A stretch of 64,000 nucleotides of DNA from Rhynchopus sp. YZ270_cl-10 (Eukaryota). Below the pieces are notes generated by a model. It did not search any database, was not told the origin of the DNA, and worked only from the letters and a program-made list of their open reading frames with translations. This document shows, piece after piece, positions 53,622-60,186 of this stretch. How positions within the stretch are numbered: position 1 is the stretch's first letter; every line of letters begins with the position of its first letter. The position numbers were made by a program, and so were the translations under genes. The DNA is taken from NCBI GenBank assembly GCA_964035575.1, contig OZ037834.1, forward strand, positions 744,001-808,000. The letters run 5' to 3'.

Positions 53622-54077
53622 ATGAGCCTCAAATGTCGCAGTGTTTACCGCCACTGGGGTAAGATCCACACGAGGTGGCAAGACCAGGACACCTTCGGGC
53701 ATGTGAACAACGTAGAGTACTACAGCTACGTGGACAGCACGGTGTGCGCCTTCCTGCGAGGCGGCGACGTCTTGCGTGCTGCGACCATGAGCCCCGGGGC
53801 ACCCCGCCCCTTCGTGGTCGAGTCTGCGTGCAAATACCTGCAGCCCGTGGGGTTTCCCGCCACACTCGATGTGGGCATTCTGGTCACCTCCTGCGGGCGC
53901 AGCAGCTGTACCTACAAGGCAGGGCTGTTCAAGGAAGGGGAAAGTGACCCTGCAGCTATCGCCACCTTTGTGCACGTCTGGACCGACGCTGAGACACAAC
54001 GTCCTACACAAATACCAGAAGCAGTACGCACTGCCTACGAAGGGCTGATTCATGAAGGCAGTTTGGAGGGTATCTGA
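53622..54077 (+). CDS. Hotdog-fold acyl-CoA thioesterase (4HBT/YbgC family, 151 aa)
   Basis: RWQDQDTFGHVNNVEYYSYVD matches the D-x-x-G-H-V-N-N-x-x-Y signature. Also FVVESACKYLQPVGFP, GRSSCTY, FVHVW. Confidence 0.9.
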   Translation: MSLKCRSVYRHWGKIHTRWQDQDTFGHVNNVEYYSYVDSTVCAFLRGGDVLRAATMSPGAPRPFVVESACKYLQPVGFPATLDVGILVTSCGRSSCTYKAGLFKEGESDPAAIATFVHVWTDAETQRPTQIPEAVRTAYEGLIHEGSLEGI

Positions 54078-54510: not shown

Positions 54511-57500
54511 ATGAGTGGGGACAAAGCACCTACATGGCAGACCGCTGCTGTGGCAGCAGGTAGCGCCGCTGCGGTTGCTGCCGCGCTTGCGAAGATGCAC
54601 GACCAGTACGTCGTGAGCCGGCCGATGGCGAGTATCGAGACTGCCATTGAGGCCTTCCGCAATGGAATTCCCTGCGTTGTCATGGATGATGAGGACCGTG
54701 AGAACGAAGGAGACATCATCGTCCCTGCCGGCGCGCTAACAGAGGAGATGTCCACCATCATGATCAACCACACTACTGGGATCCTCTGCGCTCCGATGAC
54801 CGAAGAACGCGCCAGCATGCTTGGACTCGGCCCTATGCTTGCAAACAACCAGGACCCCAAGGGAACTGCCTTCACCGTCACCACCGATTTGAAACCCACT
54901 GTCCCAAAGGATTCTGGTCTCATCCCGGATCTTGCTGACGCTGATGGTGAGACCGGGTTGACCACTGGAGTTTCCGCATACGACAGAATGATCACCTTCA
55001 AAGCATTGGCGCACCCTAAGGCTAGGGCAACAGACTTTGGCCGTCCTGGACACATCTTCCCTCTGAGGGCGAAGCGTGGCGGAGTACCAGAGAGGAGAGG
55101 ACACACCGAGGCATCGGTGGATCTCTGCCGTCTGGCAAACTGTGTCCCAGTCGGTGCCATCGGAGAGCTTGTCAACGAAACCGGAGAGATGAAGCGGCTC
55201 GATGACTGCAAGCGTTTTGGCTACAAATTCGGCTACCCCTGCATCACGATCGACGCCCTGGTGAACTATCTCTACAGAAAGCCCCTCGCCATGCCCACAG
55301 CGAACGTCGCCGTCAACCTCGCGGCCACCTGCACGATCCCGGTGACCCGCGAGGGCCGCTTCCTTGGCATCTGGGATATGTCGTGCTACGTCGAGGCGGG
55401 ACGGCATGAGCATGTGGTCCTCTCCCTGGGGGACATCTCCGCGTCTGATGCAGTTCCGGTTCGCATCCACTCTGAGTGCTTGACAGGAGACCTGATCGGA
55501 AGCATGCGGTGTGACTGTGGTGAGCAGCTCAACGCCGCCTTCCGTCACATCGCCGACAAAGGAGTCGGTGTCATCATCTACATGACCGGGCACGAAGGCC
55601 GTGGTATTGGTCTGATCAACAAGATGCACGCCTACCAGCTGCAGTCCAACGAAGGATACGACACCTACCGCGCGAACAGAGAGCTCGGCTTCCAGGACGA
55701 CATGAGATCCTTCGATGCATGCGCGGAAATCATCAAGCAGATGGGCATGCAGTCGAAGACGGTCCAGCTCCTAACAAACAGTCCACTCAAGGTCCGCGGC
55801 ATGGCTGCCCTCAAGGGAAACGTGAAGATCGAGGTTGTCCCCCTGCTGTGCAAGCACAATGAGTACAACCAACGCTACCTGACCGACAAGAGGAACCACG
55901 AGGCGCGTCTCCGTGAAGGCGGTCTTGCATCCCGTCCGGAGAACATCAGAACGTCGCTCCGTCTGTCGGACCGTGCCCACATCTCCTTGGTCCCCAAGCT
56001 TCGTGTTGCCATCATCCAGACCGTGTGGTTCCACACCCCGCTCAAAGCCCTGAAGAAGCAGGTCATCCGCCACCTGAACGAGGCTGGTGTCACCTCCGAG
56101 AACATCTGCACCATCGAGGTGGCCGGGGCACAGGATATCCCATTCGCTGCCCGCACCGTGGCGTTGACAGGAAAGGTTGACGCCGTGCTCTGCCTTGGTA
56201 TTACCATTCAAGGGGAGGTGAAGCAGGCGTTCAGCTGTCTCTCCTCTGCGGTGTCTCACGGTGTGAACGCAGTGCAGACGGAGACCGGAGTGCCAACCCT
56301 CTTCGGCGTCATCGCATGCAAGCAGCAGCAGCAGGCGATCGACCGCTGCAGTGAAGGGTCCGAGCTTGCGTACTCGCTTGCCCTCTCCACAATCCAGGTT
56401 GCCACCGAGCGTCACATCTTCAGCCCAGCGAAGGCAGGCGCCCTTCCCTCCTTTTCGCAGGACGGCGCGACCTCGCCTCTGGGGTCCAAGCCTAAGGTGT
56501 TGTCTTCTTCGACCGCATCGAACGAAACCCAGGTGCAGGGTCTGGCGGACCTCATTGTGCACCCCTCTGCCGCAGAAATGCCCAACCTCAAGATTGTGGT
56601 TGTCGCTGCAGCATGGCAGGGACGCTACGTGGACTCGGTGGTGAATGGGCTGACCGAGGAGCTCATCTCCCATGGGGTGGACGGAAACAACATTGGAGTG
56701 GTGCGTGTCCCCACTATCTTCAACATTCCGCATGCCGCTGCGGTGGCCGCGGCCAGCGGGGTCGATGCAGTGGTGACCTGCGGTTTCCTGGTGAAGGACG
56801 AAACGTCTCATTTCGACTACGTCGCTCAGGCGCATGCGATCGGAACCCTGCACACCCAGCTGCGTTGTACCATCCCCATCGTGTCTGGGGTGCTTCTCAC
56901 GAACACCGAGGAGATGCTGACACAACGTGCCCCTGATGTGCCGCACCCGCTTGCTGCGTCTGTGTTGCATCAGATTGCCTTTGCCAGAGAGGTGAGCGGT
57001 GTCAAGAAGTCTCCCGCAACGCTCTTCATGTTCGGATCGCAGCCGGGCGCTGAGGAGGCAACGTTGGTTGCTGAGCCTGCCTCGATGCTGAAGGTTCTGA
57101 CCGCCCCGACTGCCGTGCAGGCGAAGAGCATCCGCGTCGGCATTGTGCGCACCGCATGGAATGAGAGCTTCGTGGAGGAGATGGCCGCCGGCATCACGAC
57201 GTACCTCACGGACGCTGGGGTCGCCTCTGTGAACATTGTGGAGCGTGTCGTGCCTGGATCCTACGAGCTTCCTACTGGAGCTCGCATCACCGCTGACGCC
57301 GAAGCTGTCGACGTTGTCGTCTGCCTTGGAGTTCTCCTGAAGGGAGACACCAAGCATTTTGAGTACATCTGTGAGTCCACCTCTGATGCTCTTCTCAAGA
57401 CTGAGGCGGCGACAGAGGTGCCCATCGTATGGGGAGTGCTGACGTGCCAGACGATTGATCAGGCAAAGGAGCGTGCCGTGAGTGCGGAGATGCATGCTGA

Positions 57501-60186
57501 ATGGGGGGCAAGCGCACTGCATCTGGCGCTTCTGCGTGATCAGTCGCCGGCAGCAAAGAAGGGGGCCAAGGCAAGGATGACCCCAGTGCAGACACGTGAG
57601 ATCCCTCCAACGAGCTTGAGGAAGGCGCTGGTAGGGGAGTTGGTGAAGGATATCCCAAGAACGTTGAAGGCGCCGGCGGCAGACGTGGCGGAGAGCATGA
57701 GCATTGCGGTGGTGGCGACGTCGAACGAGGAGTACGCCTTGGTGAGGCAGATGGTGGACGGCATCAGCGCGGTGTTCAGTGCAGCAGGCCTCCCGGAGGT
57801 CAACGTTGTCACCCAATGGGTCCCGACGTCCTTCGACCTCCCCCACGCGGTGAACTGCATTCTCGAGAGCACCCCGGTGCTTGCGGTGCTGGCGGTAGGT
57901 ATGTCACATATTAAACAACCTGACCTTCTTGCAATACGGCTTTATCGGTTTTGACATCCCGAAGGAAATTGCAGTTTTTTTTAGCGGAAGCTCATCCCTC
58001 GGGGTGTCATAACAACTAATATGCAACCCAACATTTTTTTTTATCCACGCGCGTGAAGCTTTATTTTCCTCGCCCACCCAAAAGTACGTGGAGGGGTGTG
58101 AAAATAAAATTTTTATTTTCACCCTGTGAAAATAAAAATTTTATTTTCACCGTTTTTTTTCACCCGTCTTACTGGGGGGGGCCGAATAAACGAGGTAATT
58201 CGAATAAAGCACGTACGTCGAATAAAGCACGCATTTGAAAAATGGGTTTTTTGCTTTTTTTTCCGTCGAATAAAGCACGTACGTGTTTTATTCGACTTTT
58301 TGAACTTTTCCTGTGTTGTAACAAGGTAGTTCGTATTTTGTGAAAATTTAAGTCGCTGAAATTTTGTCCATTTTTCCGTATATCCCCCACCACAAGCCGG
58401 GATTGGCTCGGAAATGCAACAAAATCACCTCTTGGGCGAAAAAAAATCGAAAAAAAAATTGCGACTGGAAAAAGTTTCCAAAAAGTTCGAAAAGGCGAAT
58501 AAAGCACGTACGTGCTTTATTCGCCTTTTCGAACTTTTTTTTTTTTTTAAACCTCAGGATCTGAAGTGTAGGGACGCCTAATAAAACACGTACGTGCTTT
58601 ATTCGACCCCCCCCAGTAAGCCCCCAAACACCCCCAAACTCACCCTATTTTTTTCGAGTTTTTTTTTTCCCCAGGGTATCTGGACTGGGGTGGGGGGACG
58701 GGGCGTGCATGGTGGTAGCTACAAACTTGTTGGAGTAGCCCTCGAGCTGTGTCAGCGGAGGTAATATATTTTAGGGTAAATTGCGATAGCACGTACAAAA
58801 AGTGTGCGTGTTATCGCGAACAAAAACGTACGTGTTTTCCCCAGGTACCCAGTACCAGTACCCCCAATGACATAACGAAGTATCGCTTGAAAGTATCGTT
58901 CAATAACCTTGGGTGTGCAGGTGAAGTAGGACACACAAGGTATATCAAACGATAAATCAATCAGATAAACGTTACATCATTGGAAAATTGTTGGCACCGC
59001 CCCCCTGTCTTCGTATTTAGTACGTCGACAGGCCAAACAGCGTTGGGCTCAGAAGAAGCGGTGCAAGACACTGGAGATCCACACTACAGGTCTCACACGA
59101 CACTTGGGCGGGCTCGGAAAATAAAGCTTCACACTTATGGATAAAATTATGTCTTGGAGTAGAAAATAAGCGTTTTTTTCACCTCGTTGGTGTTTTCAAC
59201 CCTCGTGACTTTAATTCCCTCGCTTCGCTCGTGAATTAAAGTAACTCGGGTTGAAAACACCAACTCGGTGAAAAAAACGACTTATTTTCACTCCAATAAA
59301 TAGCTATTTTTCAAATCACCCCACCCCCACCGCACCTCACACTCACCCAAACAGGAGTCCTCATCGAGGAGGCAAACGACAACTTCGACACCGCCTGCGA
59401 GGCCTCCGCACACGGCCTTCAAGAGGTATGCCTCCCTCCCCCCCATCCACCCCCACCCCCACACTCTAGAATTTCCTCCTTCCCACCCCACCCCCCTTCC
59501 CTCTTACCTATTCAAATTCAAAAAAAAAATTCAAAAAACAGGCCTCCCTCAAGCACAACGTCCCTGTGCTCTTCGGGGTTCTGACCTGCCAGACCAGAGA
59601 GCAGGCAAGGGAGCGTGCCGAGGCGGGGAGTGAGCTGCACTACTCGCTCTCGATGTCTGCCCTGCATATGGCCTGCATGCGCATGCAGCTGGGTCTCCGC
59701 GGGAAGAACGTGGCGGCCAAGAGAGAGCTCGGCGTCGTCGCGACAGTGCCACCTGCCTCTCTGCGCAAGCTCCGTGTCGCGCTTGTCCGCACCAGCTGGA
59801 ATGAGAACAACGTGCTCGCAGTCGTCGAAGCCCTCAGAGGCAAGCTCCTCGACGCTGGTGTCCGCGTTGGAAACATCACAGAGGAGGTGGTCCCCGGAAG
59901 CCACGAGCTTCCCTTCACCGCGCAAAAGATTGTGAGCGCCAAGGAGGCTGACGTTGTCTGTCTCCTCGGCTCCCTGGTCAAGGGGGACGTGGAGAACTAC
60001 GACTACATGGCGGCAGCAACGATCAAGAGCTTCCTTGCCGTGCAGAGGAACCAGACCGCCCCTGTGGTGTGGGGGGTCCGTTGTGTCGAGGAGGGAGACG
60101 CGTTGGCGCTGAACGTCGAAGACCAGGCCGCTCTTCTGTCGACCAGGATTGTTAAGGCATCCAGAGTCCACGCTGAGTTGAACTGA
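54511..60186 (+). CDS. ribBA-ribH: Riboflavin-biosynthesis multienzyme: DHBP synthase (RibB) + GTP cyclohydrolase II (RibA) + five tandem lumazine synthase (RibH) domains; join(54511..57898,59355..59425,59542..60186), 1367 aa
   Basis: RibB motifs DDEDRENEGD, TTGVSAYDR, RPGHIFPL, RRGHTEA. RibA motifs RIHSECLTGD..SMRCDC, EGRGIGL, DMRSF, LLTNSPLK. RibH motifs such as RTAWNE, VPGSYELP, GVLLKGDTKHFEYI, PVLFGVLTC..QARERA. Splicing at two GTATG..CAG introns keeps the frame and restores the missing RibH segment GVLIEEANDNFDTACEASAHGLQE. Confidence 0.92.
58172..58616. mobile_element. Tc1/mariner-type MITE (TA TSD) with internal AATAAAGCACGTACG motifs
   Basis: TA|CTGGGGGGGGCCGAATAAA ... TTTATTCGACCCCCCCCAG|TA. 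Similar termini occur at ~35-44 and ~37447. Confidence 0.85.
59154..59296. repeat. Bulged palindrome with TC/TC internal loops and TCGCTTCGCTC apex
   Basis: Arms GTTGGTGTTTTCAACCC / GGGTTGAAAACACCAAC, ACTTTAATTC / GAATTAAAGT and GAAAATAAG / CTTATTTTC. Confidence 0.9.
59426..59541 (+). other. Intron 2 of the riboflavin gene (phase 0, 116 bp)
   Basis: GAG|GTATGC donor and ACAG|GCC acceptor, in frame with ORF 59566-60186. Confidence 0.88.

Follow-up and report, generated by a model that had tools for sequence, protein, structure and literature searches.

The gene lies on the forward strand between positions 54511 and 60186 of the window (the whole 64,000-nucleotide stretch of DNA that was analyzed), in a eukaryotic region from a marine diplonemid-type protist. 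It consists of three exons and encodes a 1367-residue fusion protein, in which RibB and RibA are followed by five consecutive copies of RibH. The Pfam matches are to DHBP synthase, GTP cyclohydrolase II and lumazine synthase. The 1147-residue open reading frame that begins at 54511 is the first exon running on into an intron. Joining the sequence across two GT-AG introns (57899-59354, 1456 bases, and 59426-59541, 116 bases) gives the 1367-residue frame, which has no internal stops. Exon 1 (54511-57898) encodes an alanine-rich N-terminal segment, RibB, RibA, RibH repeats 1 to 3 and the first half of repeat 4. Exon 2 (59355-59425) is 71 bases long and encodes VLIEEANDNFD...LQE, and exon 3 (59542-60186) carries the end of repeat 4, repeat 5 and the stop codon. 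Intron 1 contains high-copy repeats; between 57970 and 59350 these are dispersed and inverted elements of very high copy number, with a summed contig depth above 100,000 in two runs. The upstream neighbor on the same strand (53622-54077) is a 151-residue 4HBT-like thioesterase gene, and a 1035-residue open reading frame at 50311-53418 matches the MORN repeat and is hydrophobic at its ends.

RibB (54625-55269) is recognized by PF00926 with an E-value of 6e-67 and RibA (55330-55900, the end being approximate) by PF00925 with an E-value of 1.3e-47. Both domains exceed curated cut-offs (TIGR00506, 201.9 bits versus 177.45; NF001591, 201 bits versus 148); TIGR00505 falls below its own (187.3 versus 205.85). 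The RibH repeats are situated at 55984-56418 (R1), 56572-56994 (R2), 57115-57540 (R3), 57682-59694 (R4, split by both introns) and 59755-60183 (R5). With PF00885, exon 1 scores 313 bits and exon 3 scores 104 bits. Among the repeats scanned with TIGR00114, R4 being represented by its last third only, R3 alone is above the cut-off (115.2 versus 84.6). R1, R2, R3 and R5 score only 40-55 bits with the profile of type II lumazine synthase, RibH2 (PRK12419, cut-off 160). The alanine-rich segment ahead of RibB (54532-54594) is mildly hydrophobic, with a Kyte-Doolittle 19-residue maximum of 1.5. It is common to most diplonemid orthologues and to the distant five-repeat protein P0171 described below, is absent from three single-RibH fusions that were checked, and is possibly a targeting or anchor signal. 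The linker between R3 and R4 (57610-57680) contains the motif GELVKDIPRTL, identical in all seven sequences of the family and conserved beyond most of the repeats; RibB/RibA may perhaps dock there.

A search with the repeat region among 7993 candidates returned seven proteins, namely that of the window and six relatives with 47-54% identity: those of Diplonema japonicum, D. ambulator and Flectonema neradi (transcript assemblies), that of D. papillatum, which NCBI labels simply RibBA, and two genomic open reading frames. The spliced product aligns with the four complete orthologues (the three transcriptome-derived sequences and the D. papillatum model) without gaps at either junction, and both genomic open reading frames are interrupted where intron 1 lies. 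Diplonemid introns are mostly of the GT-AG type (PMC10161547, the main text of which mentions neither riboflavin nor lumazine). Splicing of the window gene is thus supported by its orthologues rather than by its own reads; no spliced joint was found in the contigs of four runs, which are uninformative on expression. With a hidden Markov model built from 115 single-domain RibH sequences, five RibH domains are recognized in the spliced protein, and the same number in all four other complete orthologues. P0006 and P0007 supply R1-R3 only, so that counts are out of seven sequences for R1-R3 and out of five for R4-R5; the seven are related rather than independent.

Residues are given in Bacillus subtilis numbering, transferred through P0011, which aligns one to one with residues 4-151 of PDB entry 1rvv. 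The A face comprises the loops with W22, S56-E58, G84-T86 and H88, and the B face comprises F113 and R127. We take E58 and F113 to have active-site roles. Phe22, His88 and Arg127 are named as active-site residues in PMC12871164, and in B. anthracis numbering F21, T85 and H87 belong to one subunit and R126 comes from its neighbor (PMC2935281). In the 115 single-domain sequences a W22-type residue, G55, E58, G84, T86, H88 and R127 are essentially invariant, so the losses described below are due neither to chance nor to normal variation.

The first-pass annotation had proposed that the catalytic residues are partitioned among the five repeats, and all the motifs it listed are present in the spliced product. 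R3 holds a complete pyrimidine/phosphate face, consisting of W22 (W883, 57157-59), S56, E58 (E919, 57265-67), G84, T86 (T947, 57349-51) and H88 (H949, 57355-57). R4 was correctly described as having lost this set while retaining F113 (F1164, 59572-74) and R127 (R1178, 59614-16), both kept in 5/5 sequences. As had also been seen, R2 keeps W22 and H88 with E58 replaced by Asn and G84 by Asp; it keeps T86 too. R5, as claimed, keeps W22, S56, E58 and G84 and has lost T86, H88 and R127; these are replaced by Val, Asn (59995-97) and Asn, respectively. R1 retains the half with F113 and R127 (R612, 56344-56346), as claimed, and has lost E58, T86 and H88, although its alignment at positions 85-88 is uncertain on account of a short insertion. 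Several retained residues had been overlooked: R127 of R2 (R806, 56926-56928), found in 7/7 sequences, with Ser in place of F113; R127 of R3 (R988), found in the window and in 3/7 sequences overall; and W22 of R1 (7/7). The loss of E58 from R2 is restricted to two of the seven sequences. Across the family R127 is kept in 7/7 sequences in R1 and in R2, 3/7 in R3, 5/5 in R4 and 0/5 in R5. The number of canonical A-face residues retained, out of 11, is 3-5 in R1, 4-10 in R2, 10-11 in R3, 3 in R4 and 7-8 in R5.

Conservation was compared per repeat among the five complete orthologues. The 11 A-face columns of R3 are 0.95 identical (p<0.001, computed like the other conservation p values against random column sets), whereas the mean over the repeat is 0.59. 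The corresponding columns of R5 are 0.75 identical (p 0.033), and A-face conservation is not raised in R1, R2 or R4. The seven B-face columns reach an identity of 0.90 in R4, with p 0.064, and of 0.80 in R1, with p 0.11; neither value is significant.

The five-repeat region was modeled with AlphaFold2 using the D. japonicum orthologue (888 residues, about 52% identical to the window protein), from a shallow alignment of 8 rows. The model has a pLDDT of 82.3 and a pTM of 0.85, and the five repeats are predicted to fold as one compact body, which fits one ring. A model of the window's own R1 and R2 has a pLDDT of 77.6 and a pTM of 0.78.

The direction of the ring was read from the points at which solved lumazine synthase chains begin when superposed on a repeat, together with a geometric argument. 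In icosahedral lumazine synthases the N-terminal beta1 strand joins the sheet of the adjacent subunit (PMC2935281, which is no more specific about the neighbor concerned). The order of strands in the sheet would be beta3-beta2-beta4-beta5 with F113 on the beta5 edge, and beta1 would fill the slot between beta3 of one subunit and beta5 of the next; the subunit that donates beta1 would therefore also be the donor of R127. When chains were superposed on R3 of the five-repeat model, 6 of the 50 matches listed started where beta3 of R2 begins, at residues 248-251 of the model. One of this group, 1rvv, has a Z-score of 22.1 with 153 aligned residues at 1.9 Å. Five of the 50 started instead at 359-360, which is the linker between R2 and R3, and most of the others were chains without an ordered beta1 or were placed on another repeat. 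In the R1+R2 model, chains superposed on R2 started at 52-54 (beta3 of R1) in 11 of the 50 matches listed and at 166 in one, where residue 1 of 1c2y aligns. The linker between R1 and R2 (ALPSF, 56440-56454, bridge at model residue 170) is predicted to fill the N-terminal beta1 site of R2, and that between R2 and R3 (LFMFG, 57022-57036, model residues 359-364 in the orthologue, with FG in 7/7) is the predicted beta1 mimic for R3. A beta-bridge is found 8-15 residues past alpha5 in all four linkers, which fits a uniform direction. In the R1+R2 model, which lacks R3, the bridge and the confidence of the linker between R2 and R3 are lost, so this linker fails to dock when R2 is its only partner; the tail of the alignment was also misaligned in this model. 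Together these results predict that the steps from R1 to R2 and from R2 to R3 run forward, with the A face of each repeat meeting Arg127 of the next. Two of the five steps of a ring closed in sequence order are thereby located, and we infer that the remaining steps, 3 to 4, 4 to 5 and 5 to 1, continue in order.

Conservation on its own would suggest the opposite direction, in which the A face of repeat i+1 would rest on the B face of repeat i. The contacts 2A/1B, 3A/2B and 5A/4B would then be partial to good, 4A/3B and 1A/5B would be dead, and the contact between R3 and R4 would carry no activity. The repeats that keep their A faces (2, 3 and 5) correspond exactly to the repeats with an invariant Arg (1, 2 and 4), and a crude residue-match score over the 24 possible ring orders places the reverse ring third to fourth (3.56) and the forward ring ninth to tenth (3.05). 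Moreover, position 113 is Asn or Tyr in single-RibH fusions, so that the Ser at this position in R2 may be tolerated. However, the superpositions spoke against this direction: in both models the beta1 site of the later repeat falls on beta3 of the repeat before it. The B face of R1 is also conserved in P0006, although the A face of R2 has been lost there. The reverse ring is thus decidedly improbable. With 1A/2B and 2A/3B fixed, two rings remain, and the one not in sequence order sets 3A against R5, which lacks the Arg, and ranks last of the 24. A placement of the R3 face against a repeat without R127, the case the first-pass annotation had named as contrary to its proposal, was not found by structure prediction. 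If the two forward steps are continued they imply a 3A/4B contact, in agreement with the earlier suggestion that the interface between R3 and R4 is likely catalytic.

Since R127 is missing from R3 in 4/7 sequences, R3 needs an Arg from another repeat. This bears on the idea that there is no ring within the chain and that R3 (or R2) of five separate chains assembles into homopentamers, the other repeats being relics or adaptors. R3 of the window does keep both faces, and single-RibH RibB-RibA-RibH fusions exist, which must assemble between chains. Against such assembly, in addition to the missing Arg, no available repeat of P0006 carries both sets, the copy number is exactly five and the pTM of the single chain is 0.85, making homopentamers of this kind very improbable indeed.

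The composition of the interfaces in the forward ring can be written as residues 22, 56, 58, 84, 86 and 88 of the A face followed by 113 and 127 of the B face. Interface 3A/4B then reads WSEGTH|FR in 5/5 complete sequences. Interface 5A/1B is W[ST][ED]G[VT]N|[FY]R in 5/5, the replacement of His88 by Asn being invariant. In 1A/2B, W22, A56 and G84 with S113 and R127 are found in 7/7, and E58 and H88 are gone; R127 of R2 is kept throughout despite the degraded partner face on R1, a point against the forward ring. Interface 2A/3B is complete in 0/7: the A set is intact in a single species, which has lost the Arg, and it is damaged in the three that keep the Arg. Both faces of 4A/5B are lost in 5/5.

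The first-pass annotation had counted one or two live active sites. A site between R3 and R4 is supported, and the count may be too low. Mutagenesis of lumazine synthase indicates that most of the residues lining the site, F21, T85 and H87 among them, have little influence, and that Arg126 is the exception, for which replacement by His leaves 62% of the activity and by Lys 9%, and a neutral residue inactivates the enzyme (PMC2935281, citing Fischer 2003). R127, the sole residue of that kind, is present at 4/5 forward interfaces in the window, and as it is near-essential, the number of sites that turn over may exceed one or two. A forward ring with three or four active interfaces could accordingly be proposed, in which only R127 is essential and the repeats have diverged through relaxed selection and tuning, without division of labor. 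However, E58, G84, T86 and H88 are invariant in 115/115 single RibH sequences, 2A/3B is complete in none of the seven proteins and strong constraint is limited to 3A. This reading is unlikely, though by no means negligible.

Some of the altered interfaces might have acquired a different chemistry or another ligand, such as a dismutation like that of riboflavin synthase, or flavin feedback sensing. The archaeal pentameric riboflavin synthase is a paralogue with the lumazine synthase fold (PMC7369331), the non-canonical residues in 5A and 1B are conserved (N88 in 5/5), and P0171 has five repeats with no intact A face. Against this, R3 scores 19.3 with the profile of that riboflavin synthase (TIGR01506), compared with a cut-off of 100.55, the other five pieces give no match at an E-value of 0.001, and no positive sign of a new activity was seen. 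Such a gain is highly doubtful.

The forward ring with one principal site accounts best for these observations. The five diverged repeats would close into a pseudo-pentameric ring in sequence order, with the interface between R3 and R4 likely to be the only fully canonical catalytic site, a reading to which we assign a probability of about 0.7. Each interface would pair the A face of one repeat with the B face of the next, and the linker past each alpha5 would take the place of the N-terminal beta1 strand and thereby fix the direction. Interface 3A/4B, the likely main active site, would condense the ribitylamino-pyrimidinedione with DHBP supplied by the fused RibB. Interface 1A/2B would retain only W22 and R127, 2A/3B would decay in a different way in each lineage, and 4A/5B would be dead and structural. 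Judged by their residues, 5A/1B, and 2A/3B in the window, may also be sites. Interface 5A/1B would be a conserved second pocket (W22, T/S56, E/D58, G84 and R127, with Asn for H88) that likely binds substrate or product and possibly turns over slowly, at slightly less than even odds. The earlier statement that such specialization is possible only once the ring is a single chain was too strong. Heteromeric rings built from separate paralogues, as in the proteasome and in Sm/LSm rings, can specialize likewise.

In a phylogenetic tree the sequences group by repeat and not by species (support of 100 for the R1, R2, R4 and R5 clades, and 94/77 for R3), showing that the expansion is older than the sampled species. 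The repeats and the RibH domains of RibB-RibA-RibH fusions are separated from 29 single domains of bacterial and fungal type at 100/99 (SH-aLRT 99 in a quick tree). A search among proteins of 324-1033 residues gave 20 matches, all with a single RibH domain and including the Physarum and Dracoamoeba fusions; no intermediate with two or three repeats was among them. The amoebozoan single-RibH fusions are likely the ancestral form. A phmmer search of 1.84 billion representatives, from which 146 new proteins were examined, yielded one other five-repeat fusion, P0171 (1291 residues, 29% identity), and one two-copy bacterial protein, P0172, whose copies are nearly identical and which was set aside as a likely assembly artifact. 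In its RibBA part, P0171 branches as the sister of the diplonemid group (SH-aLRT 99). A full A face is missing from every one of its repeats, R127 is kept in one, and its RibB acidic motif is changed. Per-repeat models give no one-to-one correspondence, and its repeats fall outside R1-R5 on long branches. P0171 is either an independent five-fold expansion or a paralogue with a dead ring. Metagenome scans found no further loci, and a scan of GTDB gave five ordinary Planctomycetota ribH loci, which were set aside. Other fusions were encountered in P0201, a 1262-residue chain joining riboflavin synthase, RibD, RibB, RibA and RibH, and in P0192, which joins riboflavin synthase to RibH.

A further elaboration would make the site between R3 and R4 the enzyme and that between R5 and R1, with its invariant replacement of His88 by Asn, a dedicated lumazine- or flavin-binding site that serves the fused RibB-RibA in regulation or hand-over. 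The five-repeat ring would have arisen twice in this branch, and the ring of P0171 would be a wholly non-catalytic scaffold. This scheme as a whole is distinctly unlikely. RibB and RibA are dimeric, and one may speculate that fusion of the repeats avoided a clash of these dimers with a five-fold ring; the existence of the amoebozoan fusions shows that such a clash is tolerable.

Diplonemids synthesize riboflavin de novo, according to passages of PMC7052976 in which lumazine is unmentioned. A full-text literature search, covering mostly openly available papers, found no paper joining diplonemids and lumazine synthase, and among the papers covered no natural lumazine synthase in tandem or single-chain form was described. 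The lumazine synthases in the literature examined have equivalent sites on identical subunits. The five-repeat fusion is real and a variant form of the known enzyme, with the role proposed for the interface between R3 and R4 supported. A natural ring in one chain would allow mutation of a single site, which is impossible in a homopentamer, and would make it possible to test whether the sites are independent or cooperative and what H88 and T86 contribute. The family also shows, within a small system, duplication, fusion and the sharing out of residues among protomers, the single-copy form being still alive in amoebozoans and a five-repeat relative being fully degenerate. Lumazine synthase is a widely used nanoparticle scaffold (PMC7369331), and with natural linkers joining the five units of the pentamer into one closed chain, such scaffolds could be decorated asymmetrically at a single position.

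Comparison with known structures by Foldseek gave RecA concatemers as top matches, with TM-scores below 0.2 and rmsd values above 23 Å, which were dismissed as repeat artifacts; no tandem lumazine synthase chain was among the matches listed, and the ESM Atlas returned single-domain clusters only, at 0.85-0.86. Duplicated protomers with few live sites, several others being structural or regulatory, occur in the AAA+ rings of dynein and midasin, in fused 4-oxalocrotonate tautomerases and in the proteasome beta ring, the folds of which are unrelated to that of lumazine synthase. The RibH1 and RibH2 proteins of Brucella and Mesorhizobium (1di0, 2obx, 2f59; Z-scores of 17-19) have the same fold as the repeats and are lumazine synthase variants with substituted active-site residues. 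They are encoded by separate genes and form homo-oligomers with the same substitutions at every site, unlike the unequal repeats of the window protein. The single-RibH RibB-RibA-RibH fusions (P0142 of Physarum polycephalum, P0136 of Dracoamoeba jomungandri and P0008) have the same domain order, but their one RibH has an intact catalytic set, with W22, E58 and H88 in 20/21 sequences (one is truncated) and R127 in 21/21. The fungal pentameric lumazine synthases (1ejb, 2jfb, 1kyv) and B. subtilis RibH (1rvv) superpose on R3 with the same alpha/beta/alpha fold (Z-scores of about 22, 1.6-1.9 Å) and share the W22/E58/G84/T86/H88 and R127 set, with sites located at subunit interfaces (PMC2935281). 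These enzymes are homo-oligomers with equivalent sites, whereas in the window protein the five copies differ from one another and follow RibB and RibA within a single polypeptide, and one interface is predicted to be canonical.
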